A DNA stretch of 64,000 nt from Syntrophaceae bacterium. Its GTDB lineage: Bacteria > Desulfobacterota > Syntrophia > Syntrophales > UBA2192. The stretch covers positions 701,578 through 765,577 of the forward strand of contig JABLXY010000003.1 in NCBI GenBank assembly GCA_013177795.1. The letters run 5' to 3'. A model generated the notes under the pieces. That model was given only the letters and a program-made list of their open reading frames with translations. It did no database searches and was not told the DNA's origin. The position numbers were made by a program, and so were the translations under genes. Of this stretch, positions 185 to 49,194 are shown in pieces. Numbering within the stretch: position 1 is the stretch's first letter; every line of letters starts with the position of its first letter.

Positions 185-1366
185 ATGATCGGGATATCGA
201 AACTGTACTGCGGGGCCGTGGAGGCCGCCGACGTCCTGCGCTACGGGCGCCACTCGGCGAGGCTCCCCTCGCACCTGCTGCAGTTCTCCAGCGACAAGCG
301 GCCCGTCGTCGTCTGGAACGCCACCCGGCGCTGCAACCTCAAGTGCGTCCACTGCTACTCGAACTCGCAGAACATCCTCTACAGCGACGAGCTGACGACC
401 GGGGAGGGCAAGCGGCTCATCGACGACCTGGCCGCCTTCGGCTCGCCCGTGCTCCTGCTCTCGGGCGGTGAGCCCCTCATGCGTCCCGACCTGCCCGAGC
501 TGGCGCAGTACGCCGTGGACAGGGGGATGCGCGTCGTCATCTCCACGAACGGCACCCTCATCACGAAAAAGCTGGCCCGGGTCTTCAGCGACATCGGCCT
601 GTCGTACATCGGCGTGAGCCTCGACGGCCTGCGGGAGGTGCACGACCGCTTCCGGGGCGTCAAGGGGGCCTTCGACAGGACGCTGCGCGGCATCCGCAAC
701 GCCCGCGACGCGGGCATCAAGGTGGGCATCCGCTTCACCGTGAGCCGCAAGAACTGGAAGGAGATCCCCGGCATCTTCGACCTGATCGAGAAGGAGAACA
801 TCCCGCGCGTCTGCTTCTATCACCTCGTGTACTCGGGCCGCGGCTCGGCCCTCATCGAGGAGGACCTCACCCACGGGGAAACACGGCAGGTGGTCGACCT
901 GATCATGGACCGCACGAAGGACCTCTTCGACCGGGGCATCGAGAAGGAGGTGCTCACCGTGGACAACCACGCCGACGGCCCCTACGTGTACCTGAGGCTC
1001 CTCCGCGAGGACCCCCGGCGGGCCGCCGAGGTCCTGGAGCTGCTCCGGATGAACGAGGGCAACAGCTCGGGGCACGGGATCGGCTGCGTGAGCTGGGACG
1101 GCGAGGTCCACCCCGACCAGTTCTGGAGGGTCCACTCCTTCGGCAACGTCAAGGAAAGGCCCTTCAGCGAGATCTGGCTCGACACGTCGAACGAGCTGCT
1201 CGCGAAGATGAAGGACAAGAAGCCCCACGTCAAGGGCCGCTGCGCGACCTGCCGCTGGCTCGATGTCTGCGGCGGCAACTTCCGGGCACGGGCCGAGGCC
1301 GTCACGGGCGATGCCTGGGCGGCGGACCCGGCGTGTTACCTGACGGATGACGAAATCAAGAAATAG
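185..1366 (+). CDS. ahbC: NirJ-like radical SAM/SPASM enzyme of alternative heme biosynthesis, tentatively AhbC (12,18-didecarboxysiroheme deacetylase / Fe-coproporphyrin III synthase)
   Basis: 393 aa. CNLKCVHCY CxxxCxxC radical SAM motif after VVVWNATRR; C-terminal Cys-rich SPASM-like region (GRCATCRWLDVCGGNFRA). The rSAM-hemB-rSAM-nirD-like order matches my recollection of the Desulfovibrio ahbC-hemB-ahbD-ahbA locus. The C versus D assignment is tentative. Confidence 0.6.
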   Translation: MIGISKLYCGAVEAADVLRYGRHSARLPSHLLQFSSDKRPVVVWNATRRCNLKCVHCYSNSQNILYSDELTTGEGKRLIDDLAAFGSPVLLLSGGEPLMRPDLPELAQYAVDRGMRVVISTNGTLITKKLARVFSDIGLSYIGVSLDGLREVHDRFRGVKGAFDRTLRGIRNARDAGIKVGIRFTVSRKNWKEIPGIFDLIEKENIPRVCFYHLVYSGRGSALIEEDLTHGETRQVVDLIMDRTKDLFDRGIEKEVLTVDNHADGPYVYLRLLREDPRRAAEVLELLRMNEGNSSGHGIGCVSWDGEVHPDQFWRVHSFGNVKERPFSEIWLDTSNELLAKMKDKKPHVKGRCATCRWLDVCGGNFRARAEAVTGDAWAADPACYLTDDEIKK

Positions 1367-1455
1367 GCGTCAGGCATCAGGCTCCAGGCATCGGGAAAGA
1401 ATCAAGGCCGTTTCCTGCAGCCTGGCGCCCCATGCCCAACGTCGAATGCCCAGTT
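1365..1455. repeat. Heptamer array element: AGGCGTC AGGCATC AGGCTCC AGGCATC, then a complementary-phase arm (CCTGCAG CCTGGCG CCCCATG CCCAACG TCGAATG CCCAGTT)
   Basis: Read directly. Four tandem 7-mers start on the TAG stop of the upstream gene. The GCC-phased arm runs to the hemB ribosome-binding site. Confidence 0.7.
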
Positions 1456-1468
1456 GAAGGAGGCACCC

Positions 1469-2443
1469 ATGTTTTTCCCCGCATACCGTCCCCGGCGCAT
1501 GAGGCAAAACGAGAATCTGCGCAGGCTCATCCGCGAGACGAAGCTCTCGGTCGACGATCTCGTCCACCCGCTCTTCGTCGTCCCGGGCAAGGGCGTGAAG
1601 AAGCCCATCCAATCCATGCCCGGCAACTTCCAGATGTCCGTCGACCACCTGCTCAAGGAGGTGAAGCAGTCGAGGGACCTGGGCATCCCGGCCGTCCTGC
1701 TCTTCGGCATCCCCGACGAGAAGGATGAGAACGCCACGGGCGCCTTTCGGAAGGACGGGATCATCCAGCGGGCCGTCAAGGAGATCAAGGACAAGGTGCC
1801 CGACATCCTCGTCATCACCGACCTGTGCTTCTGCGAGTACACGAGCCACGGCCACTGCGGGTGCCTGAAGGACGGCGACGTGGACAACGACGCCACGCTG
1901 GAGATGCTGGCCGAGACGGCCGTCTCGCAGGCGAAGGCCGGGGCCGACATCGTGGCCCCCTCGGCGATGATGGACGGCCAGATCGAGGCCATCCGCGACG
2001 GCCTCGACGAGGCGGGCTTCGAGAACACGCCGATCATGGCCTACTCGGCCAAGTACGCCTCGTGCTTCTACGGGCCCTTCCGCGAGGCCGCCGAGAGTGC
2101 CCCGCGGTTCGGCGACCGCAAGGGCTACCAGATGGACCCGGCCAACAGCGACGAGGCCGTCCGCGAGATCGGGCTCGACATCGAGGAAGGGGCAGACATC
2201 ATCATGGTCAAGCCGGCGCTGCCCTACCTCGACATCATCCGGCGGGCCCGGGAGGAGTTCGACCACCCCGTTGCCGCTTACAACGTGAGCGGCGAGTTCG
2301 CGATGATCAAGGCGGCGGCCCAGATGGGCTGGATCGACGGCGAGCGGGCCATGATGGAGGCGCTCACGGCGATCAAGCGCGCCGGCGCCGACATCATCCT
2401 GACCTACTTCGCGCCGGAGGCGGCGAGGGTGCTGCAAAAGTAA
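1469..2443 (+). CDS. hemB: Porphobilinogen synthase (delta-aminolevulinic acid dehydratase)
   Basis: [24 protein letters not shown]... is the classic HemB N-terminus; the active-site region SAMMDG is present. GAAGGAGG RBS at 1456-1463 favours ATG 1469 over the TTG 1454 of the ORF track. Confidence 0.93.
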
Positions 2444-2446
2444 AAG

Positions 2447-2534
2447 CTGGAATCATGGAGTGATGGAATCATGGAAATAATGGGTGTGACAAATAAGCTC
2501 ATCATTCCAACATTCCAGTATTCCACCACTCCAG
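2447..2534. repeat. Octamer array inverted element: TGGAATCA TGGAGTGA TGGAATCA TGGAAATAA TGGGTGTG ... TCATTCCA ACATTCCA GTATTCCA CCACTCCA
   Basis: Read directly. The left and right arms are imperfect reverse complements (about 22/30 plus G:U-compatible positions), predicting a long imperfect hairpin between hemB and the next gene. Confidence 0.75.
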
Positions 2535-2546
2535 ATTCGTGATTAC

Positions 2547-3692
2547 ATGAAGCCGGAAGAAAGACAGAGATCGGGTCAACCCGGTTCGACGAGCCCCCGC
2601 GTGGACCGCATGGTCCTGCCCGGCACGCTGCGCATGGTTGCCTGGGAGGTGACGCGCAGCTGCAACCTCGCCTGCGTGCACTGCCGTGCCTCGTCGGTCC
2701 ACGGACCCTACGAGGGGGAACTGGAGACGGAGCGCTGCCTGCGGCTTCTCGACGAGATCGCGGCCTTCAGCCAACCGGTCATCATCCTCACCGGGGGCGA
2801 GCCGCTTCTTCGCCCCGACATCTTCGAGATCGCGGCCTACGGCGACGCGAAGGGCCTCCGGATGGTCATGGCCACAAACGGCACCCTCGTGGACGATGCC
2901 ACGGCGCGGAAGATCCGCGAGGCCGGTATCCGGCGGGTGAGCATCAGCCTCGACGGCGCGGATGCCGAGCGGCACGACGCGTTCCGGCAGGTGCCGGGGG
3001 CCTTCCAGGGGGCGCTTTCGGGCATCGAGGCCCTGAAGCGCGCCGGCGTCGAATTCCAGGTCAACACGACGATCACGCGCATGAACCTCGACCAGGTGGA
3101 GGAACTGCTCGCCCTGGCGCAGCGGCTCGGGGCGGCGGCGCATCACGTCTTCCTGCTCGTCCCCACGGGCCGGGGAAAGGAAATGGCCCACCAGGCCATC
3201 TCCGCCGGAGAGTACGAAAAGACGCTGGAGTGGTTCTACGAGGCGGGGCTGTCGTGCCCCATGCAGCTCAAGGCGACCTGCGCGCCGCACTTCTACCGGA
3301 TCTACCACCAGCGCAAGAAGGAGCGGGCGGCGCAGTCCGTCCCCGAAAACCCCCTGCACGCCATGACGCGCGGCTGCCTCGGCGGCAGCTCCTTCGTCTT
3401 CATCTCGCACCGGGGCCAGGTGCAGCCCTGCGGGTACCTCGAGCTCGACTGCGGGCAGCTCAGGGAGACGCCCTTCGAGGAGATCTGGAAAGACTCGAGG
3501 ATCTTCCGGGACCTGCGGGACCTCCGAAAGTACGGCGGCAAGTGCGGCCGCTGCGAGTTCGTCACCGTCTGCGGAGGCTGCCGGGCCCGGGCCTACGAGA
3601 AGACGGGCGATTACCTCGCGGAAGAGCCGCTGTGTGTCTATCAACCAAGGAAAGGCAAAGGGCAAATGGCTCAGGGCGAAAGGGCAAGATGA
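2547..3692 (+). CDS. ahbD: NirJ-like radical SAM/SPASM enzyme, tentatively AhbD (heme b synthase)
   Basis: 381 aa. LRMVAWEVTRSCNLACVHCRA radical SAM motif; C-terminal CGRCEFVTVCGGCRARA SPASM-like cluster. Synteny as for ahbC. The true start could be the internal ATG near 2610. Confidence 0.6.
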   Translation: MKPEERQRSGQPGSTSPRVDRMVLPGTLRMVAWEVTRSCNLACVHCRASSVHGPYEGELETERCLRLLDEIAAFSQPVIILTGGEPLLRPDIFEIAAYGDAKGLRMVMATNGTLVDDATARKIREAGIRRVSISLDGADAERHDAFRQVPGAFQGALSGIEALKRAGVEFQVNTTITRMNLDQVEELLALAQRLGAAAHHVFLLVPTGRGKEMAHQAISAGEYEKTLEWFYEAGLSCPMQLKATCAPHFYRIYHQRKKERAAQSVPENPLHAMTRGCLGGSSFVFISHRGQVQPCGYLELDCGQLRETPFEEIWKDSRIFRDLRDLRKYGGKCGRCEFVTVCGGCRARAYEKTGDYLAEEPLCVYQPRKGKGQMAQGERAR

Positions 3693-3758
3693 ATCATAAG
3701 AAATGCGATGCCTCTTGCTTCCGGCCATTAGCCATTCGCCGTACGCCTGATGCCATTT
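3654..3758. repeat. Heptamer array inverted element: GGCAAAG GGCAAAT GGCTCAG GGCGAAAG GGCAAGA (overlaps the ahbD 3' end) ... GCCTCTT GCTTCCG GCCATTA GCCATTC GCCGTAC GCCTGAT GCCATTT
   Basis: Read directly. Seven consecutive GCC-phased 7-mers at 3710-3758 end 4 nt before ATG 3763. The left arm encodes the last approximately 13 codons of the upstream gene. Confidence 0.8.
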
Positions 3759-4209: not shown

Positions 4210-4244
4210 AGGGCGGTGGACCGAAGGCACATGGCTCCGGAATC

Positions 4245-4348
4245 GGGAAGCTGGGAAGTTGAGAAATTGCGAAGCTTGGACCGGCTGAAGCCAAATTCAC
4301 CGTCTTCGCATTTCCGAGCTTCCTAACTTCAAAGCTTCTTAACTTCCG
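4245..4348. repeat. Octamer array inverted element: GGGAAGCT GGGAAGTT GAGAAATT GCGAAGCT ... TCCGAGCT TCCTAACT TCAAAGCT TCTTAACT TCCG
   Basis: Read directly. It has the same unit family as the element at 23599-23706. Confidence 0.75.
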
Positions 4349-4428: not shown

Positions 4429-7092
4429 ATGACCGACAAGCCGAAACCCACCCTCTACCTCGTCGACGGCAGCAACTACGTCTACCGCGCCTTCTTCGCC
4501 ATCCAGGGCCTCACCAACTCGCGCGGCTTCCCGACCAACGCCGTCTACGGGTTCAACAACATGCTCTCCAAGCTCCTGCGGGAGCGCAAGCCCGAGTACA
4601 TCGCCGTCGTCTTCGACGCGAAGGGCCCGACCTTCCGCAACGAGGCCTTCGAAGACTACAAGGCGCACCGAAAGCCCATGCCCGACGCCCTGAAGCCCCA
4701 GATCGCCGTGATCAAGGACCTCGTGCGCGCCTACCGCATCCCCCTGCTGGAGATCGAGGGCATCGAGGCCGACGACGTGATCGGCACCCTGGCCCGGAAG
4801 TTCGAGGCCGAGGGCGTGAAGGTGGTCATCGTCTCGGGCGACAAGGACCTCATGCAGCTGGTCTCCGACGGGGTCGTCATGGTCGACACGATGAAGGACA
4901 AGACCTATGACGCCGCAGGCGTGGAGGAGCGCTTCGGTGTGGGGCCCGACCGGGTGGCCGAGCTGCTCGGCCTCATGGGCGATGCGTCGGACAACATCCC
5001 CGGCGTGCCCGGCGTGGGGCCCAAGACGGCGCTCCAGCTGATCCGGGACTACGGTTCCCTGGAGGGCGTGCTGAGCAATGCGGGAAAGATCCGCAACGAG
5101 CGGATCCGCAAGGCCGTCACGGAGCACGCTCAGCAGGCGAGGCTCTCCCGGGAGCTGGCCCTCGTGAGGACCGATGCCGCCGTCGATCTCGACCTCGAGC
5201 AGGCGCGCTACGAGGGGCCTGACCGCGAGGCGCTGAAGGCCCTCTTCAAGGAACTGGAGTTCTCCTCGCTCATCCAGGACCTGGAGGTGCGCGACCGCAA
5301 GGCGGACGGCAAAGCCCATCTCGTCTCGACGGCGGAGGGGCTTCACGGCCTCATCCGCGGCATCGAAAAGGCCGGGGCCGTTGCCCTTTACCCGGTCCTG
5401 ACCTCCGAGCTGCCCATGTACGCCGACCTCGTGGGACTCGGCATGGCCTGCGCGCCGGGGGAATCCTTTTACTTGCCCCTCGGGTCCGGCAAGGCGGCCT
5501 GGCGCGACCACGCCCTGAAGGAACTCGCGCCGGTTCTTTCCGCCGAGAAGATCCTCAAGCACGGCCACGACCTCAAGAATGCCGTCATCGCGCTCGCCCG
5601 GCTGGGGATTCCCCTGCGGGGGGCGGGCGACGACACGATGGTGGCCTCCTACCTGCTGAACCCCTCGAAGAAAAGCCACGACATCACCGAGGCGGCGCGG
5701 GAATTTCTCGACCTCGAGCTCACCCCGGCGAAGGAGGTGCTCGGCAGCGGCGCAAAGGCCCTGTCGCCCGCCGACGTGGAGCCCGCGCGCATGGCTCCGT
5801 ACGCGGGGGAACGCGCCGAGGCCGCCCTGCGGATCCGCCCCGTCGTGGCGGGGAAAATCCGGGAGGCGGCCCTGGAGGATCTCTACAGCAAGGTCGAGAT
5901 GCCGCTGGTCCATGTGCTGGCCGCCATGGAGCAGCGGGGGGTCCTCGTCGACCGCAAGCAGCTCGCGGAGATGTCGGTCCAGTTCGACGAGCTCCTGTCC
6001 CGGTCCGAGGAGAAGATCTACAGCCTGGCCGGCGAGCGATTCAACATCAACTCGCCCAAGCAGCTCCAGGTCATCCTCTTCGACAAGCTCAAGCTCGCCA
6101 AGGGACGGAAGATCAAGGAAGGCTACTCCACCGACGTGGAGACGCTCACGACGCTGGCCCAGTCCCACGAGCTGCCCGCCGAGATCCTGGCCTACCGGAG
6201 CATCGCGAAACTCAAGTCGACCTACGTCGACGCCCTGCCGGCGATGGTGCACCCGCAGACCGGGCGCATCCACACCTCCTACAACCAGACCGTGACCGCC
6301 ACGGGGCGCCTCTCGAGCAGCAACCCCAACCTGCAGAACATCCCCATCCGCACCCCCGAGGGCCGGCGGATCCGCCAGGCCTTCGTCGCGCCGCACGGGT
6401 GCGTGCTGGTCTCGGCCGACTACGCCCAGATCGAGCTGCACGTGCTCGCCCACCTCTCGGGAGACGAGGCGCTCATCGAGGTCTTCGAGTCGGGGGAGGA
6501 CATCCACACCCGGACCGCTTCGGCCCTCTTCGGCGTGTTCCCGGAAATGGTCACCCCCGAGCTGCGCCGGCGCGCCAAGGTGATCAACTTCGGCGTGATC
6601 TACGGCATGAGCCCCTTCGGCCTCTCCAAGGAGCTCGGGATCAGCCAGGCCGAGGCGAAGGAATACATCGACAGCTACTTCGACCGCTACAAGGGGGTCC
6701 GGAAATTCCTCGACGGGATCCTTGAGGATGCGCGCCGCGACAAGTACGTATGCACCCTGCTGAACCGCCGGCGCTACATCCCCGAGATCACGAGCTCCAA
6801 CGCGGCGCTGCGCCAGTTCGCCGAGCGCACGGCCATCAACGCGCCCATCCAGGGGACGGCGGCCGACCTCATCAAGATCGCCATGATCAACCTGCACGCC
6901 CTCCTCAAGAAGCGCCACCCGAAGGCGGCCATGATCATGCAGGTGCACGACGAGCTGGTGTTCGAAGTCCCCGAGGGCGAGAAGAAAGACCTCATGGCCC
7001 TCGTGAAGCGCGAGATGGAAGGGGTCATGAAGCTGCGCGTGCCGCTGAAGGTGGAGATCCATGCGGGGCGCAACTGGGACGAGGCGCACTGA
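4429..7092 (+). CDS. polA: DNA polymerase I (5'-3' exonuclease, 3'-5' exonuclease and polymerase domains)
   Basis: 887 aa. N-terminal LYLVDGSNYVYRAFFA and GIPGVPGVGPKTA; C-terminal ADYSQIELHVLAH-type (SADYAQIELHVLAHLSGD), KVINFGVIYG and QVHDELVFEV motifs. Confidence 0.97.
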   Translation: MTDKPKPTLYLVDGSNYVYRAFFAIQGLTNSRGFPTNAVYGFNNMLSKLLRERKPEYIAVVFDAKGPTFRNEAFEDYKAHRKPMPDALKPQIAVIKDLVRAYRIPLLEIEGIEADDVIGTLARKFEAEGVKVVIVSGDKDLMQLVSDGVVMVDTMKDKTYDAAGVEERFGVGPDRVAELLGLMGDASDNIPGVPGVGPKTALQLIRDYGSLEGVLSNAGKIRNERIRKAVTEHAQQARLSRELALVRTDAAVDLDLEQARYEGPDREALKALFKELEFSSLIQDLEVRDRKADGKAHLVSTAEGLHGLIRGIEKAGAVALYPVLTSELPMYADLVGLGMACAPGESFYLPLGSGKAAWRDHALKELAPVLSAEKILKHGHDLKNAVIALARLGIPLRGAGDDTMVASYLLNPSKKSHDITEAAREFLDLELTPAKEVLGSGAKALSPADVEPARMAPYAGERAEAALRIRPVVAGKIREAALEDLYSKVEMPLVHVLAAMEQRGVLVDRKQLAEMSVQFDELLSRSEEKIYSLAGERFNINSPKQLQVILFDKLKLAKGRKIKEGYSTDVETLTTLAQSHELPAEILAYRSIAKLKSTYVDALPAMVHPQTGRIHTSYNQTVTATGRLSSSNPNLQNIPIRTPEGRRIRQAFVAPHGCVLVSADYAQIELHVLAHLSGDEALIEVFESGEDIHTRTASALFGVFPEMVTPELRRRAKVINFGVIYGMSPFGLSKELGISQAEAKEYIDSYFDRYKGVRKFLDGILEDARRDKYVCTLLNRRRYIPEITSSNAALRQFAERTAINAPIQGTAADLIKIAMINLHALLKKRHPKAAMIMQVHDELVFEVPEGEKKDLMALVKREMEGVMKLRVPLKVEIHAGRNWDEAH

Positions 7093-7179
7093 GAAGAAGG
7101 CAAGACGGTGAGAGGGTAAGAACGTTGGATTGCTCGGAGGCCGAATTCCCGCCCTCGGATTCTCCAACCATACCCTTTA
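7091..7179. repeat. Purine-rich octamer array GAGAAGAA GGCAAGAC GGTGAGAG GGTAAGAA CGTTGGAT with a weak pyrimidine-rich counterpart (CGGATTCT CCAACCAT ACCCTTTA)
   Basis: Read directly. It starts on the polA TGA and shares the GGTAAGAA unit with the 39624-39766 element. Pairing with the right arm is poor. Confidence 0.5.
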
Positions 7180-12091: not shown

Positions 12092-12195
12092 CGGGCTTGT
12101 GAAAAACGCCCATCTGCGGCGTTCCTTCATCCCTCGTCGCTGCGACGCCCGTCCCGTCTTCTCAGTCTATTCCGTCTGTTCCGTCGAAAAGGGCG

Positions 12196-12278: not shown

Positions 12279-12424
12279 AAGCCCCTCAAGTTTCCGTGGA
12301 TCGGGTCGACGGGCGCACGGGGCGCCATGCCCTGCTTCCGCTGCCGGCGGCCCCTGCACGCCGCCGCCCGGTGCCTGAACCCCTCCTGCCCCCGCCCCCA
12401 TCCCCCCCAGCCCCGTCTTTTCCA

Positions 12425-20403: not shown

Positions 20404-20484
20404 CAGGCTTCAGGCACCAGGCACCAGGCGTCAGGCCTGTTCGGAATTCTTCCCTCGAGCCTCATGCCCAATGCCTGATGCCCA
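20404..20484. repeat. Heptamer array inverted element: CAGGCTT CAGGCAC CAGGCAC CAGGCGT CAGGCCT ... GAGCCTC ATGCCCA ATGCCTG ATGCCCA
   Basis: Read directly. The five tandem 7-mers begin 1 nt after the fliF stop. The right arm ends 10 nt before the fliG ATG at 20495. Confidence 0.8.
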
Positions 20485-22163: not shown

Positions 22164-22233
22164 GGCAAAGGGCGAAAGGCGACGCGGAAAAAATTCTTTT
22201 CAAGCCCTTACGCCATCGGTCCCTGCGCCTGAG
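22149..22233. repeat. Heptamer array inverted element: GGGCAAAA GGCATAA GGCAAAG GGCGAAA GGCGACG ... AAGCCCTTAC GCCATCG GTCCCTGC GCCTGAG
   Basis: Read directly. The left arm overlaps the last codons of fliH. The right arm ends about 8 nt before the fliI start. Confidence 0.7.
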
Positions 22234-26277: not shown

Positions 26278-26405
26278 CGGCCCGCAGGGCGTCGTGCCCC
26301 CTTCCGCGCGGGCGAAATCACCGGAAGCACGGCACGGAAGGAGAGCGCGATCGGAAGTGAACGGTCGTGATTCCGATGTGTTATACGCGTCCTGTCCCTC
26401 CTGTC

Positions 26406-30498: not shown

Positions 30499-30999
30499 AT
30501 GGCCAAGGAAGCGGAAAAGAACAAGACGGAAGAGCAGGCCGCCGAGGGCGGCAAGGAAAAGAAGAAGGGCTCCAAGCTCAAGTGGATCCTCATCGGCGTG
30601 GTCCTCCTGCTGGTGCTCGGAGGAGGCGGCGCCGGGGCCTATCTGTTCCTGAACAAGTCGGCGGGCAAGGAGCCCCAGGCCCCCCCGAAGCCCCCCATCG
30701 GCGCCGTCTGGGCACCCGACGTGTTCATCATCAACCTCGCCGACGCCGATGCGGACCGCTATCTCAAGATCACCATGAACTTCGAACTGTCGGACGCGCT
30801 CGCCGCGACCGAGCTGGAACAGATGAAGCCGAAGGTGCGCGACATGGTCCTCGGCGTGCTGACCGTGAAGACGTTCAAGGACCTGAACAACTTCGAGGGC
30901 AAGCAGCGCCTCAAGGAAGAGATCGCCATGCGCCTCAACAGCCACCTCACGAGGGGCAAGGTGGTGCAGGTCTACTTCACGGATTTTGTGGTGCAATAA
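30499..30999 (+). CDS. fliL: Flagellar basal body-associated protein FliL
   Basis: Lys-rich N-terminus, one TM helix, then FIINLADADADRYLKITMNFEL...VVQVYFTDFVVQ, the classic FliL end. Confidence 0.92.
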   Translation: MAKEAEKNKTEEQAAEGGKEKKKGSKLKWILIGVVLLLVLGGGGAGAYLFLNKSAGKEPQAPPKPPIGAVWAPDVFIINLADADADRYLKITMNFELSDALAATELEQMKPKVRDMVLGVLTVKTFKDLNNFEGKQRLKEEIAMRLNSHLTRGKVVQVYFTDFVVQ

Positions 31000-31000
31000 G

Positions 31001-31068
31001 AGGCGAAGGGCAAAAGGCGGAAATCCCCCTGACACCCCCTCATGGAAAACGGGGAAAGAGGGGGATTT
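31001..31068. repeat. Short GGC-phased purine array (GAGGCGAA GGGCAAAA GGCGGAAA) plus perfect 10-bp hairpin AAATCCCCCT ... AGGGGGATTT
   Basis: Read directly. The stem arms are at 31021-31030 and 31059-31068 in the fliL-fliM spacer. Confidence 0.6.
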
Positions 31069-31110
31069 GGACGAAATAGAAACGGGAAGAGAAATAGGCG
31101 GCGTTTCGCG

Positions 31111-33808: not shown

Positions 33809-34078
33809 ATGACAACGGATCTGATCATGGGCATCGCGGCCGAGACGATGAAGGTGACCCTCCTGGTGTCGGCGCCGATCCTGCTCGTCGGCCTCGTCGT
33901 GGGCATCGTGATCAGCGTCTTCCAGGCAGTGACGCAGGTGCACGAGATGACGCTGACCTTCGTGCCGAAGATCATCGCCGTCATGCTGGCCCTCCTCGTC
34001 GCCGCGCCGTGGATGCTGGACATGCTCGTGAACTTCACACACAACCTGTTCTCGAACATACCGAACTATATCAAATAG
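33809..34078 (+). CDS. fliQ: Flagellar export apparatus protein FliQ
   Basis: 89 aa. VISVFQAVTQVHEMTLTFVPKI. Confidence 0.95.
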   Translation: MTTDLIMGIAAETMKVTLLVSAPILLVGLVVGIVISVFQAVTQVHEMTLTFVPKIIAVMLALLVAAPWMLDMLVNFTHNLFSNIPNYIK

Positions 34079-34110
34079 GCACCAGGCAACAGGCGCGGGC
34101 ATCAGGTGAC
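34076..34110. repeat. Heptamer array TAGGCAC CAGGCAA CAGGCGC GGGCATC AGGTGAC
   Basis: Read directly. It fills the whole fliQ-fliR spacer, starting on the TAG stop. Confidence 0.65.
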
Positions 34111-34115
34111 AGAGC

Positions 34116-34889
34116 GTGAACTTCCCCGTTTTCTCCGCCGCCCAGGTCGAGCTGTTCTTCCTCGTCCTCATCCGGGTCAGCACGATCCTGGCCATGATCC
34201 CGATCCTCGGGGACCGGACCACGCCCCTGCGGGTCAAGGGGGGGCTGTCGATTCTCGTTACCGCTCTGGTCCTGCCCTTCGTGGAGCCCCCGGCGGCGGC
34301 CGCGGACGATCTCTTCAGCCTCGGCATGCGCATGGGCGGGGAGGTGTTCATCGGGGTCATCCTGGGATTCGCCGGCCGGCTCGTGTTTGCGGGGATCCAG
34401 CTGGCAGGCCAGCTCGTGGGCTTCCAGATGGGCTTTGCCATCGTCAACGTCATCGACCCCGCGACGAGCGGCCAGGTGTCCATCATCGCCGAGTTTCAGT
34501 ACATGCTGGCCGGGCTCTTCTTTTTGGCCGTCGACGGCCACCACACGATGATCCAGGCCATCTCGGAAAGCTACCGGGTCCTGCCGGTCCTCGGGTTCCA
34601 CGTCACGGGCGACCTGGTGCAGAACCTCGTCGCGCTGTCGCGGAACCTCTTCATCATCGCCGTCAAGGTCTCGGCCCCCATCGTCGTGGCCCTCCTGTGC
34701 GCGAATGTCGGCCTGGGCCTCGTCGCGCGCACCGTTCCACAGATCAACATCTTCATCGTGGGCTTCCCGCTCCAGATCGCCATCGGCCTCATCGGGATCG
34801 GGGTCACGCTGCCCCTGTTTCTCCACATCGCGGCCGGCCTCTTCTCGAACCTCCCCGCCGAAATGGGCCTCTTGCTCAGGGCAATGTAG
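34116..34889 (+). CDS. fliR: Flagellar export apparatus protein FliR
   Basis: GTG start. (M)NFPVFSAAQVELFFLVLIRVSTILAMIPILG; polytopic membrane protein. Confidence 0.92.
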   Translation: MNFPVFSAAQVELFFLVLIRVSTILAMIPILGDRTTPLRVKGGLSILVTALVLPFVEPPAAAADDLFSLGMRMGGEVFIGVILGFAGRLVFAGIQLAGQLVGFQMGFAIVNVIDPATSGQVSIIAEFQYMLAGLFFLAVDGHHTMIQAISESYRVLPVLGFHVTGDLVQNLVALSRNLFIIAVKVSAPIVVALLCANVGLGLVARTVPQINIFIVGFPLQIAIGLIGIGVTLPLFLHIAAGLFSNLPAEMGLLLRAM

Positions 34890-34899
34890 GCGCCGGGGG

Positions 34900-34928
34900 T
34901 GCAGGCATCAGGCAACGGGCGTCAGGCG
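34900..34928. repeat. Heptamer array TGCAGGCA TCAGGCA ACGGGCG TCAGGCG
   Basis: Read directly, 11 nt after the fliR stop. Confidence 0.6.
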
Positions 34929-35026
34929 CAAGACTGGACGGCGGGGAAAGGCGTCCATCATCTCTCCTTGCGGCCCGGCCATTGCCCGAAATCCGGAGCG
35001 ATAATCCCGGAATCAGAACGCGTTTC

Positions 35027-35163: not shown

Positions 35164-35175
35164 CTAGAGCGAACA

Positions 35176-35224
35176 ACGCAAAACGTAAAACGTAAAACCC
35201 AAAACCTAACACGGCATACGGCAG
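35176..35224. repeat. Heptamer array ACGCAAA ACGTAAA ACGTAAA ACCCAAA ACCTAAC ACGGCAT ACGGCAG
   Basis: Read directly. Seven tandem 7-mers end 4 nt before the flhB ATG. Confidence 0.8.
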
Positions 35225-38461: not shown

Positions 38462-39625
38462 GTGCAGATCAAGCGTTTCGAAGCCGCCAGCACGCAGGAA
38501 GCCTTGTTGAAGATCAAGAGCGAGCTCGGGCCGGATGCCGTGGTGCTCTCGACGAGGAAGCTCCGCGGGGGGAGGGACCCGCTCGTCGAGGTCACCGCTG
38601 CCGTGGACGAGCGCCCGGAAGGCCGCCGCGAAGGCGCGCGGCCCGCGGGCCCGCCCGCTCCGGTTGCGCCCGACGGCGAAGGGGAGGCCGTGGCCCGCGC
38701 GCTGCGGCGCGACCTGGAGGAGATCAAGGGGCTTTTGGCCGAGTCCGCCCTTCGCTCCTTCCCCTACGGGGAGTTCCTCGAGATGCGGGAGATGCTCGAC
38801 ACGTTCTTCGACACCATGGGGTTCCAGCGCAAGGAGAAGTTCCCCGGGGCACTGCTGAAGATCTACCACCGGCTCGTCTCGTCCGGCGTGTCGCGCCCGA
38901 AGGCCTTCCTGCTCGTGAGCACGCTGAACCGCAACCTGCCGCCGGGGAAGCTGCAGGACGAGGAGGCCGTGGGCCGCACCGCCGAGAAGCTGCTGGCCAT
39001 GTCCATCGGCCTCTCCTACCGGGGCGAGGAGAGGAGGCGCATCTGCGCCTTCGTGGGGCCCACCGGCGCGGGGAAGACGACGACCCTGGCGAAGATCGCG
39101 GCCCGGGCGGCCCTCGAGGAGAAGAAGAAGGTCGGCCTCATCACGACGGACACCTACCGCATCGCCGCCGCGGAGCAGCTCAAGACCTACGCACGGATCA
39201 TGCAGATCCCCATCGAGGTGGTCCCCGACAAGGCGGCCTTCCGGATGGCCCTGGCGAAACTCGCGGACCGGGACCTCGTCCTGGTGGACACGCCCGGCAA
39301 GAACACGGCGGAGCCCGGCTACATCGACAGGCTGCGGGATCTCTTCGAGCTCGACGCCCCCGTGGAGGCCAGCCTCCTGCTGCCCCTGACGTCGAGCCAG
39401 GACAACCTGGCCGAGAACGTCGCGCGGTTCAAACCCGTGGGCTACCGCTCGATCATCTTCACCAAGCTCGACGAGGACCGGCATTTCGGCAGGATCTACA
39501 ACATCATCGACCAGGAGCGCAAGCCCGTCTCCTGGGTGACCAACGGGCAGAACGTCCCGCAGGACATCGAGAGGATCGACCCGGGGCGGCTGGCCCGGAT
39601 GATCATGACCAGCACGATGCAGTGA
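38462..39625 (+). CDS. flhF: Flagellar biosynthesis GTPase FlhF (SRP-type)
   Basis: GTG start. (M)QIKRFEAASTQEALLKIKSELGPDAVVLST; GPTGAGKTTT; DTPG; TKLDE. Confidence 0.93.
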   Translation: MQIKRFEAASTQEALLKIKSELGPDAVVLSTRKLRGGRDPLVEVTAAVDERPEGRREGARPAGPPAPVAPDGEGEAVARALRRDLEEIKGLLAESALRSFPYGEFLEMREMLDTFFDTMGFQRKEKFPGALLKIYHRLVSSGVSRPKAFLLVSTLNRNLPPGKLQDEEAVGRTAEKLLAMSIGLSYRGEERRRICAFVGPTGAGKTTTLAKIAARAALEEKKKVGLITTDTYRIAAAEQLKTYARIMQIPIEVVPDKAAFRMALAKLADRDLVLVDTPGKNTAEPGYIDRLRDLFELDAPVEASLLLPLTSSQDNLAENVARFKPVGYRSIIFTKLDEDRHFGRIYNIIDQERKPVSWVTNGQNVPQDIERIDPGRLARMIMTSTMQ

Positions 39626-39766
39626 GAAGACAGAGGGTAAGAGGGTAAGAAGGTAAGAAGGGACGTTAAGAAGAAATGAAGGGATAGAGATCGAAGAAGC
39701 GGATGATGCGCGATGTAACACAGACGCATCCAACCTTCTGATCCTCTCACTTTCTTACCTTCTTAT
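39624..39766. repeat. Octamer array inverted element: GAGAAGAC AGAGGGTAA GAGGGTAA GAAGGTAA GAAGGGACGTTAA GAAGAAATGAA ... CCAACCTTC TGATCCTC TCACTTTC TTACCTTC TTA
   Basis: Read directly. It fills the flhF-flhG spacer and shares the GGTAAGAA unit with the 7091-7130 array. Confidence 0.75.
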
Positions 39767-41482: not shown

Positions 41483-42124
41483 ATGGCGCGGCGCGTAGAA
41501 CTCGATCTGCTGGAAATCGACGGGCCGGCGGAAGCCCCGGGCACGGCACCGGCGGGGATCGCCGCCGAGGCGGGTCCTGCCCCGCCGAAGCGCATGTCGC
41601 TGCTGCTGCGGCTCCGCGCATGCCTGCAGAGGGCCCTCGGCGTGTTCGGGCGGCCGGGCCCCTCGCTCGGGTGGAGGGCTCTGCTGAACTGGAAAGTCCT
41701 CGCGGCGGGCGTCACTGGGCTCCTTCTCCTCTCGGCCGCCGCCGGGTCCCTCGTCTATTTCCGCCATCAGGGGGAGGAGCGGATCACCGCCGGGCAGCAG
41801 ACGGCGGCCGTCCCGGCCGCCCCGGCGGTCCACGAGGCCGTATTCCCCGATTTCAGCATCGACGTCAAGGATGCCAAAGGCCGCTACCGCTTCCTGCAGT
41901 GCGACGTCACGGTCGAGTTTCACGGGGCGGTGGAGCTCACGGAGGACCGGAAGGTGGAGATCCGCAGGGCGATCTACCACGCGGCGAAGAAGAGGGGGCC
42001 CGAGTGGATCGGGAAGCCCGATTCCGGCAGCCGGTTCAAGAGGGACGTGCGGGAGGAGCTGCAGAGCGTCCTGGGCGAGGGGACGCTGAAAAACGTGTAC
42101 CTGACCCGGTTCGTGTGGTTATAG
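41483..42124 (+). CDS. FliL-like membrane protein (second FliL-domain paralog) with an extended N-terminal region
   Basis: One TM helix (VLAAGVTGLLLLSAAAGSLVYF), then FSIDVKDAKGRYRFLQCDVTVEF...KNVYLTRFVWL, parallel to the FliL end VVQVYFTDFVVQ. Confidence 0.6.
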   Translation: MARRVELDLLEIDGPAEAPGTAPAGIAAEAGPAPPKRMSLLLRLRACLQRALGVFGRPGPSLGWRALLNWKVLAAGVTGLLLLSAAAGSLVYFRHQGEERITAGQQTAAVPAAPAVHEAVFPDFSIDVKDAKGRYRFLQCDVTVEFHGAVELTEDRKVEIRRAIYHAAKKRGPEWIGKPDSGSRFKRDVREELQSVLGEGTLKNVYLTRFVWL

Positions 42125-42164
42125 GGAACGGGGCCCGGGGAACGGGCGGAAGGGGGATCGGGAG

Positions 42165-44365: not shown

Positions 44366-45504
44366 TGACCCCCGGCGTCCAATTCCCCACCCATCTCCGG
44401 CCCGCTGACGAACCGGTCCTGCAGATCCGGACCGGGCAGCCGCCGCCGGGCATGTCCCCGGGCCAGACCGTCGAGGTCCGCGTACTGGAGCGGCTGGCCG
44501 ACGGGCGGCTTCTCATCCGCGCGGGCGAAACGCACCTGACGGCCGAGGCGGCCCCGGCGCTGCGTCCCGGCCAGACGCTGACCGCGCGGGTGGAGAGCCT
44601 CCTTCCCCGGGTCGTGCTGTCGGTTGTGCCCTCGGCCGAGGAGCGCCTGATCGCGGAGCAGCTCCGGGCCTTCCGGTCCAACCCCGCCGCGCTCACCCAG
44701 AGCCTCGCGGAGCTGGCCGCGGTTCTCGGCGGCAGGACGGGCGGCGCCGCCCCGCAGGCGGGCCCCGATTTCCTGGCCGCGATCCTCGATGCGCTCAGGG
44801 CGGTCCTGCCGGGCCGGGAGCGGATCGGGGAGGGCTTCTCGCTCACCGACTTCGCCCGGACGCTTGGCCTGCTCACGGAGAGCGACCTGAGAAGGATCCT
44901 GGAAAAGCCCGGAGACCGCCAGACATCCCTGCCGGCCAACCTGAAGACAAGCCTGATGCGGGGCCTCCGCGAACTCCAGGCGGTCCCCGGGACGGGCGAA
45001 CCCGCCCCCGTAGAGACCGGCACGGCCCGCCCGCTCATCCCGGCCCTGGAGAAGGCCCTGCGGGCGATCGAGGGCCGGCAGCTCCTCGACGTCCACCTCC
45101 AGCAGGGCGAGGGGAAGCTGCTGTTCCAGGTGCCCCTCCTCATGGCCGGTCATGTGGGAAACGCGAGCATCCTCATCGAGCGCGACGGGCAGCGCGCCCT
45201 CCCGGGCGGGCGGGGCGGGGCGTTCCGGGTGCTCTTCGCCCTCGAGATGGACGCCCTGGGCGACGTGATGGCGCAGGCGCACTTCAGCGCAAACACGGTG
45301 ACGTGCAGCGTGCACTGCGCAGGCGCGGACGCGGCGTCGTTCGTCGCGGGCCTGCTCCCTGCACTCAACGATCAACTGGTCCGGGCGGGGTACCGCGTGG
45401 CGGGCCTCGAGGTGCTCGTCGACCGCCGGGTCCGAGAGACGATGCAGGATCGCCTCCGGGAGGCAATCTGCGGCGATGGCGCCGTGCTGAGCGTATTTGC
45501 GTAG
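44365..45504 (+). CDS. FliK-like protein (Flg_hook-type C-terminal domain)
   Basis: TGATG overlap with the upstream gene. C-terminal FRVLFALEMDALGDVMAQAHFSANTVTCSVHCAGADAASFVAGLLPALNDQLVRAGY resembles the FliK C-terminal domain. Confidence 0.55.
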   Translation: MTPGVQFPTHLRPADEPVLQIRTGQPPPGMSPGQTVEVRVLERLADGRLLIRAGETHLTAEAAPALRPGQTLTARVESLLPRVVLSVVPSAEERLIAEQLRAFRSNPAALTQSLAELAAVLGGRTGGAAPQAGPDFLAAILDALRAVLPGRERIGEGFSLTDFARTLGLLTESDLRRILEKPGDRQTSLPANLKTSLMRGLRELQAVPGTGEPAPVETGTARPLIPALEKALRAIEGRQLLDVHLQQGEGKLLFQVPLLMAGHVGNASILIERDGQRALPGGRGGAFRVLFALEMDALGDVMAQAHFSANTVTCSVHCAGADAASFVAGLLPALNDQLVRAGYRVAGLEVLVDRRVRETMQDRLREAICGDGAVLSVFA

Positions 45505-45547
45505 GAAGAGGCGCAAGGCAAAAGGCATAAGGCATAAGGGAAGAGGC
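45505..45547. repeat. Heptamer array GAAGAGGC GCAAGGC AAAAGGC ATAAGGC ATAAGGG AAGAGGC
   Basis: Read directly. It fills the spacer up to GTG 45550. Confidence 0.75.
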
Positions 45548-46050: not shown

Positions 46051-46105
46051 GCCTTCTCCTCTCTTTTCCCTCCTCGTGCCTTGAGCCTTGTGCCTTCTGC
46101 CTGTC
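46051..46105. repeat. Pyrimidine-rich tract followed by GCC-phased heptamers GCCTTGA GCCTTGT GCCTTCT GCCTGTC
   Basis: Read directly. It ends exactly 5 nt before the TGGCAC at 46111. Confidence 0.7.
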
Positions 46106-46110
46106 TTCGA

Positions 46111-46166: not shown

Positions 46167-46880
46167 ATGATGTACGGTGTGAACACGGCGGTCAGCGCGG
46201 CCGTCAAGAAGCTCTCCCAGCACGACTACGTGACCCACAACCTGGCCAATGCCAACACGCCGGGCTTCAAGGCCGAGCGGCTGATTTTCGTGCGGAGGCC
46301 CGGGACGGACCCCATGGCCGAGGACGGCTTCAGCCACGACCCCGTCGTCCTGGTCGACCACTCGCCGGGGACGCTGCAGAAGAGCGGAAACCCTCTCGAC
46401 GTGGCCATCCAGGGGGAGGGGTACTTCGTCATCGAGACGAAGGACGGCGAGCGCTACACGCGCAACGGCAGCTTCACCCTCAACCAGAACCGGGAGCTCG
46501 TGACCCAGTCCGGCGACGCCGTGCTGGGCGAGGGCGGCAGGATCACGATTTCCGGCAAGAAGATCCAGATCTCGAATGCGGGGGCCGTCAGCGTCGACGG
46601 CAGCGAGGTGGGGAAGCTGAAGATCGTCGATTTCAAGAAGAAGGACGCGCTCGTGAAGCGGGGAGCCGGTCTTTTCGAGGCTTCCGACAAGGCCGAGCAG
46701 GCCGCGCTGGAAAACCCGGAGGTCCGCTCGGGCTACCTCGAGACCTCCAACGTCCAGGCCGTCAAGGAGATGATCGAGATGATCGACATCCAGCGCTCCT
46801 TCGAGGCCTACCTCAAGATCATGCAGACGATGAGCGAGCAGGACCGACTGGCGACGGGCCGGATCGGCAAGCTGACGTAA
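46167..46880 (+). CDS. flgF: Flagellar basal-body rod protein FlgF
   Basis: THNLANANTPGFKAERL; GYFVIETKDGERYTRNGSFTLN; C-terminal LETSNVQAVKEMIEMIDIQRSFEA. Confidence 0.9.
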   Translation: MMYGVNTAVSAAVKKLSQHDYVTHNLANANTPGFKAERLIFVRRPGTDPMAEDGFSHDPVVLVDHSPGTLQKSGNPLDVAIQGEGYFVIETKDGERYTRNGSFTLNQNRELVTQSGDAVLGEGGRITISGKKIQISNAGAVSVDGSEVGKLKIVDFKKKDALVKRGAGLFEASDKAEQAALENPEVRSGYLETSNVQAVKEMIEMIDIQRSFEAYLKIMQTMSEQDRLATGRIGKLT

Positions 46881-46883
46881 AAA

Positions 46884-46920
46884 CAGGCATTTAGGAAAAA
46901 GGCTAAAGGCGAAAGCCCTT
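46884..46920. repeat. Short GGC-phased purine array (CAGGCATTT AGGAAAA AGGCTAA AGGCGAA AGCCC)
   Basis: Read directly in the flgF-flgG spacer. Confidence 0.5.
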
Positions 46921-47721: not shown

Positions 47722-47727
47722 GACGCG

Positions 47728-48453
47728 ATGAAACGCCCCCACGCCCTGTCCGCCCTTGCCGTCCTCCTGATCGCCCTTGCCTGCGCGTGCGGCGTCGCGG
47801 CCGACTGCGGGGCGGCGCCCGTCGGGGAGAAGGCGATCAAGGAAGCCGTGAAAAAGCACGTCGAGGACAACGCGCCCTGGCCGAGGGACCGGGTGCGCGT
47901 CGAGTTCTTCGGCGCGATGCCCGAGGTGTCCGTCGCCGGCGGGCCCACCGACATCCAGGTCCGCAGCCGCGCGGGCGAGCAGTACATCGGGCGCACGTCC
48001 TTCACCGTGCGCTTCTCGAAGGGCGACACCGTCGTCCGCGAGGAGACGGTGCGCGTGCGGATCGAGGTCCTCACCGACGTCGTCGTCAGCACCCGGGGCA
48101 TCCTGCGCGACGCCGTCATCAGGCCCGACGACGTGACCGTGACGAGCAAGTGGATGGACACGGCCACCACGGGGACCCTGGCGGACGCCGGCGAGGCGGT
48201 GGGCAAGAGGGCGACGGCCCGGCTCAACCCCGGCACGGAGATCACGCGGCAGATGCTGCGCTCGGTGCCCGTCGTGAAGAAGGGCGAGGTCGTCCGCATC
48301 GTCCTCGAGAGCGGCCCCATGACGATTTCCGCCGTCGGCCTGTGCCAGGAGGACGGCGGCCAGGGGGACCTCATCCGGGTCCAGAACGTGTCGTCGAAAA
48401 AGATCATCTTCGCCCGGGTGATGGGCACCGCCCTCGTCCGCGTGGACTTCTGA
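47728..48453 (+). CDS. flgA: Flagellar P-ring assembly chaperone FlgA
   Basis: Signal peptide plus a C-terminal SAF-like domain: VKKGEVVRIVLESGPMTISAVGLCQEDGGQGDLIRVQN. Confidence 0.88.
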   Translation: MKRPHALSALAVLLIALACACGVAADCGAAPVGEKAIKEAVKKHVEDNAPWPRDRVRVEFFGAMPEVSVAGGPTDIQVRSRAGEQYIGRTSFTVRFSKGDTVVREETVRVRIEVLTDVVVSTRGILRDAVIRPDDVTVTSKWMDTATTGTLADAGEAVGKRATARLNPGTEITRQMLRSVPVVKKGEVVRIVLESGPMTISAVGLCQEDGGQGDLIRVQNVSSKKIIFARVMGTALVRVDF

Positions 48454-48472
48454 GAAAGGGAGGCGCAAGCGC

Positions 48473-49162
48473 ATGAAAGTCTTCCGCACCGCTCTGTCGA
48501 TGACCCTGCTTCTGCTGCTCACGGGCTGCCTGGCCACGAGCTACGACGCCGCCATGAACCGCGAGCCCGTCGTGCTTCCTCCCCCGGCGCCGCAGGAGAT
48601 CAGGCAGACGCCGTCCCCGGGCTCCATCTGGCCGGGGGCGACGTCCAACAACCTGCTCTTCACCGACCGCAAGGCCCGCAACATCGGCGACATCGTGACG
48701 ATCGTCGTCGACGAGAAGGCCGAGGGCGAGAACAACGCCAACACGGACACCAAGCGCCAGACGTCGACCACGGCGGGGATCACCGGGTTCGTCCAGACCA
48801 ACCCCGACAAGCGGTTCGTCGCCGGCTACTCCCTGGGCGGCGCTGCGGACAGCTCCCTGAAGGGCGAGGGCAAGACCAACCGCGACGGCAGCCTCAAGGG
48901 CCGCATCAGCGCCCGCGTCGTGCGGGTGCTGCCCAACGGCAACCTCGTCATCGAGGGCCGCCGCATGCTCACGGTCAACGCCGAGGACCAGTTCATGGTG
49001 ATCACCGGGATCATCCGGCCCGATGACGTCACGACGGACAACCTCGTCTACTCGCAGTACATCGCCGATGCCCGGATCGTCTACGCGGGCAAGGGGGTTG
49101 TGGACGACAAGATGCGGCCGGGCTGGCTGACGCGGGTCGTGGACTGGGTGTGGCCGTTTTAG
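48473..49162 (+). CDS. flgH: Flagellar L-ring lipoprotein FlgH
   Basis: Lipobox LLLLTGC; GSIWPG; DRKARNIGDIVTIVV; NGNLVIEGRR. Confidence 0.95.
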   Translation: MKVFRTALSMTLLLLLTGCLATSYDAAMNREPVVLPPPAPQEIRQTPSPGSIWPGATSNNLLFTDRKARNIGDIVTIVVDEKAEGENNANTDTKRQTSTTAGITGFVQTNPDKRFVAGYSLGGAADSSLKGEGKTNRDGSLKGRISARVVRVLPNGNLVIEGRRMLTVNAEDQFMVITGIIRPDDVTTDNLVYSQYIADARIVYAGKGVVDDKMRPGWLTRVVDWVWPF

Positions 49163-49194
49163 GCTTCAGGCATCAGGCAACAGGCTTTGGGCAA
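49160..49194. repeat. Heptamer array TAGGCTT CAGGCAT CAGGCAA CAGGCTT TGGGCAA
   Basis: Read directly. It starts on the flgH TAG stop. Confidence 0.75.

Follow-up and report, generated by a model that had tools for sequence, protein, structure and literature searches.

Short degenerate tandem-repeat arrays, often paired as palindromes, in the gene spacers of an uncultured Syntrophales lineage

What are the short, imperfect tandem repeats that lie between so many genes in a 64-kb stretch of a Syntrophaceae bacterium genome, and why are they there? The stretch, hereafter the window, is the whole of the 64,000 nt analyzed (GenBank assembly GCA_013177795.1, contig JABLXY010000003.1, positions 701,578 to 765,577 of the forward strand). 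Its GC content is 66% and its genes lie nearly all on the + strand, with alternative haem pathway genes and polA at 0-8 kb and a long flagellar region at 18-57 kb. About one third of the gene-to-gene gaps carry runs of ~30 nt built from degenerate 7- or 8-nt repeats, which we call arrays. We favor the reading that the arrays stem from a lineage-specific burst of DNA-level palindromic short-tandem-repeat elements, to which we give a probability of roughly 55%.

The observation itself is confirmed and statistically robust. When the spacers (4,983 nt), 100 dinucleotide shuffles of them and 59 kb of coding DNA were scanned for segments with at least 17 of 21 self-matches, the spacers gave 6 at lag 7 and 4 at lag 8, the shuffles gave none at either lag, and the coding DNA gave 1 at lag 7 and 0 at lag 8; at lags 3-6 and 10-13 the spacers gave none. 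Therefore, the signal is real, specific to periods of 7 and 8, and intergenic, and on both points, periodicity above shuffles and restriction to spacers, it agrees with the initial annotation of the window. Tandem Repeats Finder (TRF) likewise found period-7/8 arrays of at least 3 copies nearly confined to spacers. The 18 spacers in which that annotation had seen 7- or 8-nt tandem runs all hold arrays, most with a TRF score of at least 30 and the rest by direct reading, and about seven further arrays were found (marked "further" in the table below). That the arrays are chance low-complexity sequence or an assembly artefact is scarcely credible: the degeneracy of some of them, such as those at 46878 and 31001, is all that points that way, and against it stand the 10 matches observed versus 0 in 100 shuffles and the occurrence of arrays in the same spacers of independent metagenome-assembled genomes (MAGs) and of metagenome contigs from different projects.

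Relatives of the window were found by scanning species-representative genomes for AhbD. The nearest, with 86-93% amino acid identity, are uncultured 'Syntrophaceae/Syntrophales bacterium' MAGs (L001-L013), and the AhbD proteins of Smithella and Syntrophus-like genomes are at most 73% identical to that of the window. A census of 515 kb from relatives of the window lineage yielded 167 arrays, 129 of period 7 and 38 (23%) of period 8. Array density was 2-7 per 10 kb throughout the clade, including its more distant members L014, L015, L018 and L097, and 4.2 per 10 kb in L103, which represents an unrelated locus (FlgE 55% identical, 57% GC). Arrays were essentially absent from about 100 other Syntrophales or related loci, several of them at 57-63% GC; GC content was therefore rejected as an explanation, and the trait is lineage-specific. 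L103 is the metagenome contig Ga0116160_1000951, in which heptamer arrays are dense, for example at 11651-11680 and 11854-11885, and which also holds a near-perfect pair in the reverse order, AAATCCC x4.3 followed by ATTTGGG x4.6.

By their units, the arrays of the window can be grouped into family A (GGTAAGAA, at 7091 and 39624), family B (GGGAAGTT, at 4245 and 23599), family C (AAGGCNN / AAGGGCN, at 3654, 22149, 24812, 31001, 45505 and 46884, and as the complement at 26400 and 46072), family D (CAGGCNN, at 1365, 20404, 34076, 34900 and 49160) and family E (TGGAATNA, at 2447); the units AACGTAA (35176) and GGGAACG (42124) were given no family letter. Families C and D differ chiefly at one unit position and are mixed within arrays. 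The best complement of an arm often lies at another locus, and complementarity between loci is as good as that within a locus. Some units are favored by a genome at several loci, such as CAGGGTN in L085 and AAGGCNT in L082. Family A, whose element is ~105 bp long and conserved in its loop as well, has inverted arms and at least 5 non-orthologous copies in several genomes, and it behaves as a dispersed element similar to miniature inverted-repeat transposable elements (MITEs) or repetitive extragenic palindromic (REP) sequences. The initial annotation had argued against any REP- or MITE-like consensus, a view that has to be given up, since a few families recur within and between genomes and one of them is dispersed as a whole.

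The comparison of relatives shows how the arrays change. Array-bearing spacers are shared by all relatives, with units and copy numbers differing; in the fliQ-fliR spacer, for example, the number of units varies from 2 to 12. Among the relatives compared, arrays never occur in short spacers that have a canonical Shine-Dalgarno (SD) sequence. The window and L081 are 91% identical at the DNA level, and their alignment breaks exactly at the array-bearing spacers. Between L086 and L088, which are 97% identical, the only multi-nucleotide indels in 10 kb are one of 7 nt and one of 11 nt, both inside arrays. Since each is about one unit long, we take them as the signature of slippage, which supports the slippage suggested earlier. 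As to whether period, arms or sequence are kept in orthologous spacers, the array position is retained and the unit sequence mostly turns over, families A and E being conserved. The RGGCNN-type heptamer arrays are conserved at or below the level of 4-fold degenerate sites.

The arrays of the clade have a median size of 4.2 units (interquartile range 3.6-4.6) or 31 nt (n=167), and the typical array combines a conserved unit core with 2-3 variable positions. Of 17 G-rich arrays read directly in the window, 13 begin at the very stop codon (e.g. TAGGCGT CAGGCAT...), as had been stated for the purine-rich arm, and in the clade the median distance from a G-rich array to the upstream stop is 10 nt, with 31 of 54 lying within 15 nt. 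Where a stop codon adjoins a G-rich array, it is TAA in 14 of 26 cases, compared with 89 of 319 for other genes (raw counts, clade-wide), which suggests that the first array unit often supplies the stop codon. An enrichment of TAG at such stops, suggested by a manual count in the window, was dropped because only 3 of the 26 are TAG clade-wide.

With redundancy removed, 150 arrays remain, and for 51 of them a significant reverse-complement partner lies no more than 350 nt away; overall, pair distances range between about 20 nt and, for 45502/46072, about 500 nt. Among the 48 informative pairs, 44 have the G-rich arm on the 5' side and the C-rich arm on the 3' side. A positive GC skew of the left arm combined with a negative one of the right arm is shown by 43 of 50 hairpins, the exceptions all coming from one CAGCCGA family. 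It might be thought that the purine-rich arm coming first signals the orientation of transcription, but the argument fails in logic, since an R...Y palindrome reads R...Y on the opposite strand too. Single arms and the minus-strand TPR gene are the informative cases. That gene has an array on its stop codon (24934-24965), and it is on the minus strand that this array is G-rich; as a rule, then, the G-rich strand has its 5' end next to a gene boundary. A complementary arm had been described as usual in the window. It is clear at 1365, 2447, 3654, 4245, 22149, 23599, 34900 and 39624 and short at 7091 and 20404, so the description fits about ten loci, and the other loci have single arms. The predicted hairpins are likewise real at a part of the loci: their folding energies fall well below those of shuffles at five (z = -3.7 to -4.7 at 1360, 2438, 23590 and 39620, and -2.75 at 4235), and |z| is below 1.7 at the others. 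The predicted helices are periodic, with core pairing of 5-6 bp and 2x2 internal loops at the variable unit positions.

Do such hairpins work in the mRNA, as intercistronic stabilisers, processing sites or devices of translational coupling, as was proposed from the first reading of the window? We aligned the left arm of 51 hairpins to the reverse complement of the right arm, scoring both kinds of transition mismatch equally. Besides 1,082 Watson-Crick positions and 168 transversions, the alignments contain 76 mismatches that are G·U pairs in the sense RNA versus 105 that would form G·U solely in the antisense RNA. The two strands of the spacers have equal minimum free energies (19 spacers versus 20), and array-bearing spacers are not more structured per nucleotide than other spacers. 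RNAalifold detected no covariation in families E and A, which are either too conserved or have arms pairing in shifted registers. A search for an already described family gave no Rfam match at the gathering threshold over the whole window, and none that was meaningful at E<=1 in 1300-7300. Because there is no G·U bias, no strand difference in energy, no covariation and no Rfam match, selection for pairing in mRNA has no positive evidence, and we abandoned sense-strand selection as an argument. Moreover, several C-rich arrays lie upstream of sigma54-type promoters and would therefore be outside the transcript started there.

The explanation that the pairs are functional RNA elements, that is, intercistronic hairpins in which the stop codon stands opposite the next start codon and a terminating ribosome would melt the base and free the start, or which would stabilise or help to process the mRNA, nevertheless deserves a hearing. 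The arms do span from stop to start codon, several downstream genes have no SD sequence after the C-rich arm (e.g. 2547, 3757 and 39765), and the hairpins occur in the same spacers of all relatives despite the turnover of their units; families A and E are conserved above synonymous sites, and the same roles were proposed for the short tandemly repeated repetitive (STRR) hairpins of cyanobacteria (PMC2670836). However, in addition to the strand-neutral pairing and energies, the ordinary degree of structure and the lack of covariation described above, about half of the arrays have no partner arm, and arrays are also found in convergent spacers as well as directly upstream of sigma54-type promoters. 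We regard a primary role in RNA as unlikely, although it has enough in its favor to be taken seriously.

Motifs of the sigma54 type (TGGCAC-N5-TTGC) precede flagellar genes at 12425-12439, 17495-17509, 26447-26461, 46111-46125 and 35027-35042. Their number in the window is not above chance (5 found, 2.8 expected); those at 26447 and 35027 keep their position in relatives. A C-rich quasi-heptamer array stands directly before the motifs at 12425, 26447 and 46111 and also before the weaker one at 35027. At the fliK promoter (26447) every relative has an array, and the unit is different in each. The arrays might thus be DNA-structural or protein-binding sites that shape promoter-proximal architecture, either through IHF/HU-type binding, as considered for Geobacter metallireducens, or through G-quadruplex/i-motif formation, as considered for Xanthomonas. 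IHF-type bending normally acts at sigma54-type promoters, four of which are abutted by C-rich arrays, but most arrays are at stop codons rather than promoters. The unit core is conserved at a fixed spacing, and yet the cores are diverse (RGGC, GGGT, GAAGG, TGGAAT, GTCT, CAGCCGA, AACGTAA) and the unit at one and the same promoter changes between relatives; a single sequence-specific binder is therefore unlikely. The modal four units would correspond to the four G-tracts of a quadruplex (PMC4692102). Most window arrays, however, have GG and not GGG, and four G3 tracts were seen only at 42124 in the window and in a few arrays of relatives, so we rejected the quadruplex as a general explanation. 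The strand symmetry of the arms and the conservation of families A and E also fit a role in DNA structure, whereas periods of 7 and 8 bp are out of helical phase. On balance we think it rather improbable that the arrays are primarily sites of this kind.

We therefore return to the lineage-specific burst of DNA-level repeat elements. The element would consist of about four degenerate 7- or 8-nt units (~30 nt), typically in a convergent inverted pair with the G-rich arm first. Its arrays change by whole-unit slippage, as the indels between L086 and L088 show, and family A at least spreads as a whole ~105-bp element in the manner of a MITE or REP. Selection would confine the arrays to spacer DNA that has no other function, and this confinement to unneeded DNA would account for their position right against stop codons, start codons, sigma54-type promoters and terminators. 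The inverted partner might be a copy of the G-rich arm, made by fold-back or template switching, or the palindrome might be inserted ready-made. The G-rich-first order could reflect a selective filter, under which neither strand's transcript would expose a free C-rich stretch for Rho loading and no G-rich tract would stand on the sense strand directly before a start codon, where initiation would suffer; alternatively, a G-rich nascent strand may fold back and be copied. Once transcribed, a pair would form an imperfect, periodic hairpin whose base places the stop codon opposite the start codon. Some effect of these hairpins on mRNA stability or translational coupling is to be expected of necessity, and we consider it secondary for most copies.

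Several observations weigh against this reading. A fixed core with fixed variable positions is not what neutral decay of slippage products predicts, and the persistence of arrays in the same spacers of all relatives and their absence from short SD-containing ones could be due to function. The more regular arm is the left, post-stop one in 27 cases versus the right one in 12 (p=0.008), an asymmetry relative to gene direction, although constraints from ribosome-binding sites on the right arm may account for it. The family E element between hemB and ahbD is 80% identical between the window and L015, whereas 4-fold sites of the flanking genes agree at about 50%, which is near saturation given a random expectation of 0.38-0.42, and the family A element at polA is 84% identical compared with about 70% at 4-fold sites. 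These two octamer elements thus appear constrained or repeatedly homogenised, and judging from this conservation there may be room for a real function in a subset of copies. No target-site duplication was visible at the ends of the family A copies that were read, and no autonomous partner element turned up, though no genome-wide search was made for one. Finally, the Rho-related filter and the fold-back origin are steps that we infer.

Some of the same features would suit a lineage-specific trans-acting system that writes or maintains the arrays by recognising the period and the G-core instead of a fixed sequence, the candidates being a repeat-binding protein or a template-guided polymerase working at spacer boundaries. 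The genome-favored units, the fixed cores with 2-3 free positions, the ~30-nt length and the constraint on families A and E would all fit such a writer. We hold it to be a long shot; if it were true, the arrays would form a genome-wide layer of operon 'punctuation' that sets coupling, polarity and promoter context in about one third of the spacers.

The individual loci of the window are collected in the table.

Table 1. Arrays and array pairs of the window. Letters are the families defined in the text; z compares folding energy with shuffles; "further" marks arrays beyond the 18 loci of the initial annotation.
Position	Strand	Feature	Family	Fold or basis
1364..1395	+	G-rich heptamer array TAGGCGT CAGGCAT CAGGCTC CAGGCAT; unit 1 holds the stop codon of the upstream radical-SAM gene	D (CAGGCNN)	TRF, direct reading
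1414..1452	+	Degenerate complementary C-rich arm (..GCCTG.. ATGCCCA..), then SD sequence and hemB start		z=-3.8
2446..2534	+	Octamer hairpin (TGGAATNA)x4, loop, (TNATTCCA)x4 in the hemB/ahbD spacer; sequence kept in L004, L014, L015, L018	E	z=-4.7
3649..3754	+	Heptamer pair: G-rich arm 3649-3688; C-rich arm 3714-3754, ending 2 nt ahead of the next start codon	C	
4244..4348	+	Octamer hairpin, GGGAAGYT arms 4244-4279 and 4314-4348; nested in another palindromic repeat upstream of polA	B	z=-2.75
7090..7178	+	Octamer element: GAAGGTAA-type arm 7090-7129, conserved loop, truncated right arm 7161-7178; starts at the polA stop codon	A	
12154..12186	+	Period 8-9 array CCGTCT(N), complement of the relatives' (GACNGAATA)n family; further		
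12380..12417	+	C-rich quasi-heptamer array (CCCCCNN) directly upstream of sigma54-type motif 12425-12439; further		
20401..20475	+	Pair: (CAGGCNN)x5 from TGA stop; short C-rich partner 20457-20475	D	
22149..22231	+	Pair: G-rich arm 22149-22187 across the stop codon; C-rich arm 22203-22231	C	
23599..23703	+	Octamer hairpin (GGGAAGTT / AACTTC arms) in the fliI-like/fliJ spacer	B	z=-3.7
24812..24861	+	G-rich array from the TAG stop of + gene 24209-24814, convergent spacer; further	C	
24934..24965	-	Array on the stop codon of the minus-strand TPR gene; G-rich on -, read as C-rich on +; further		
26400..26441	+	C-rich heptamer array (GCCCTNN), its end 5 nt from the downstream sigma54-type fliK promoter 26447-26461	C (complement)	
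30997..31020	+	Short G-rich array from TAA stop, then a different hairpin repeat at 31021-31068	C	
31069..31101	+	Degenerate (GACNGAATA)n-type array ahead of the next start codon; further		
34076..34112	+	Lone G-rich array filling the fliQ-fliR spacer	D	
34887..35020	+	G-rich arm 34887-34932, partner 34966-34988, then (CCNGAAT)-type C-rich units up to sigma54-like motif 35027-35042; 34985-35020 further	D	
35175..35214	+	(AACGTAA)x5.6 array ending 14 nt before the flhB start; lone right arm		
39623..39764	+	Octamer hairpin from the flhF TGA stop to the ATG of the next gene	A-like	z=-3.75
42124..42164	+	(GGGAACG)-type G-rich array filling a 40-nt spacer; G-quadruplex-type motif; further		
45502..45547	+	G-rich array from TAG stop; best complement in the window 46072-46102	C	
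46072..46109	+	C-rich array (CCTTGTG) abutting sigma54-type promoter 46111-46125	C (complement)	
46878..46918	+	Weak lone G-rich array filling its spacer	C/D	
49160..49195	+	Lone G-rich array from TAG stop	D	

Arrays mislead gene callers and break alignments of close relatives. The G-rich arm at 3649-3688 codes for the non-conserved C-terminal ~13 residues of AhbD (3649-3692); since the AhbD of most relatives matches the window protein only to about residue 369, the original C-terminus and stop codon have given way to the array. Starts are called inside arrays or promoters at 23653 and 46110: the fliJ start called at 23653, from the longest ORF (open reading frame), is probably wrong, and the true one probably lies near 23771, where homology to relatives begins; the 'ATG' at 46110 is part of the sigma54-type promoter motif, the likely start being the ATG at 46168. 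The arrays at 45502-45547 and 46072-46109 bracket a 105-aa ORF resembling the FlhB C-terminus. The lone right arm upstream of flhB has its counterpart in L097, which retains a complementary (GTTTTAN)n left arm. We also considered that the TPR gene (24963-26498) had recently been inserted into a hairpin loop, and discarded this because all close relatives have the gene and because the best partners of the arms at 24812 and 26400 lie elsewhere. At 24895-24933, within the convergent spacer that follows 24209-24814, there is a terminator-like hairpin, GGGGACGGTCAGTCCATCGGACGATCGATCCC and then T7; it is nearly identical in L081, L092 and L097, the last of which has no neighboring TPR gene.

Other repeats were seen in the same spacers. 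A second, unrelated palindromic repeat (GGCTGGTGAAAAAYRCCCATCTGCGGCG ... CGCCTTGCATCCGGGCATTTTTGACCAGCC) is present at 12093-12125 and 4357-4389 of the window and in full length in the asnC-polA spacer of L002 (9650-9810), L015 and L018, and in several genomes its center is occupied by a tandem-arm hairpin of a different family. A third type, the hairpin AAATCCCCC...GGGGGATTT at 31021-31068, is regularly followed by (GACNGAATA)n arrays and also occurs in L001, L002, L009 (g185-hemB spacer), L085 and L092 (g30256-g31042 spacer). An ORF of ~90 aa, GIY-YIG-like by reading of its translation and with flanking hairpins of its own, sits in the hemB-ahbD spacer of L002 (7570-7900) and L009 (9600-9900) beside a heptamer array. 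In the fliQ-fliR spacer of L097 (15436-15893), a (GGCTAAA)n array is interrupted by an inserted element of ~300 bp, which has terminal inverted repeats (GGTTACCTATGTCATGACA), and the array runs on at both sides of it.

How do the arrays compare with known repeats? REP/REPIN/BIME sequences and MITEs such as Correia and ERIC are short, palindromic, extragenic, dispersed and lineage-specific, and often lie close to stop codons; REP arms are not built of tandem units, and in the partial genomes covered here no RAYT (Y1 transposase) gene came to light. The dispersed behavior of family A recalls them, a likeness of description and not of compared sequence. The closest anatomy was described by Rehm et al. 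2015 (PMC4692102), who reported (GGGANTN)n in Xanthomonas campestris/axonopodis and GGGGA(C/T)T in Nostoc PCC 7120. Those heptamers have a conserved core with variable positions, prefer four units and are about 90% intergenic; their G-rich strand lies 0-50 nt after a stop on the coding strand, sometimes overlapping it, or before a start on the non-coding strand; 70-75 convergent inverted pairs occur per genome; the site is conserved between species with length and sequence varying, and no function was identified (PMC4692102). Our 167 arrays share the core with variable positions and the modal number of about four units (median 4.2), the intergenic location with the G-rich 5' end at an ORF boundary (median 10 nt from the stop) and the convergent inverted pairs (51 of 150 arrays with a partner, 44 of 48 pairs G-rich first). 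In contrast, the quadruplex-capable unit GGGAATC / GGGGAYT, with its four G3+ tracts, is not matched here, where the window units by TRF are CAGGCAT, AAGGCAA, TGGAATCA, GGGAAGTT, GGTAAGAA and AACGTAA. In another phylum, we find many families per genome, including octamers, mostly with GG cores, one family being a dispersed ~105-bp element, and a density about 10 times as high (about 3 per 10 kb, extrapolated from 515 kb, versus about 186 per 5 Mb).

Geobacter metallireducens has paired 'putative global regulator binding sites' on opposite strands, described by Aklujkar et al. 2009 (PMC2700814) with units GTTGCTYN x4, TCTCCGTS[Y] x3 and MTYCTGA x5 and read by them as IHF/HU sites. Like our arrays, they are opposite-strand pairs of 3-5 tandem 7-9-nt units at variable distance, in several families, between genes and genome-specific within the genus, and their host belongs, as does the window lineage, to the former Deltaproteobacteria. 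However, their units are absent from the TRF consensus units found here, some of the Geobacter sites have ISGme8/9 at a fixed distance whereas no insertion sequence was seen beside the window arrays, and each family there has 8-24 pairs versus arrays in about one third of spacers here. The STRR sequences, first reported for Calothrix PCC 7601 (cited in PMC4692102), form heptamer hairpins between cistrons, e.g. hupS-hupL, with transcript stability or translational coupling proposed (PMC2670836). The initial annotation had named them as the nearest analogue; the 7-nt tandem period, the intergenic position and the intercistronic hairpins are indeed shared, but STRR are usually near-perfect repeats of one unit, and their defining sequences and filamentous cyanobacterial hosts differ. 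The TAACTGA direct repeats of Beggiatoaceae and cyanobacteria (MacGregor 2015, PMC4679880) resemble the arrays as heptamers in 2-6 copies a few nt from start codons in spacers without canonical ribosome-binding sites; they differ in having a single perfect unit, in almost never forming inverted pairs and in lying upstream of starts instead of on stops.

The idea that the arrays have no known equivalent must thus be revised: besides the intercistronic STRR hairpins (PMC2670836), the literature has the same anatomy in Xanthomonas and Nostoc (PMC4692102) as well as in G. metallireducens (PMC2700814). A full-text literature search found no description of such repeats in Syntrophales. Heptamer repeats over-represented at gene boundaries have been known from several bacterial phyla since 1990, their origin and function unexplained. 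The clade studied here is unusually dense and diverse, with about one array per 3 kb and many unit families, and its turnover among close relatives, together with sister lineages of similar GC without arrays, makes the question of origin and function approachable. The Syntrophales arrays are a new, unusually dense case of a known, functionally unexplained kind of bacterial repeat.

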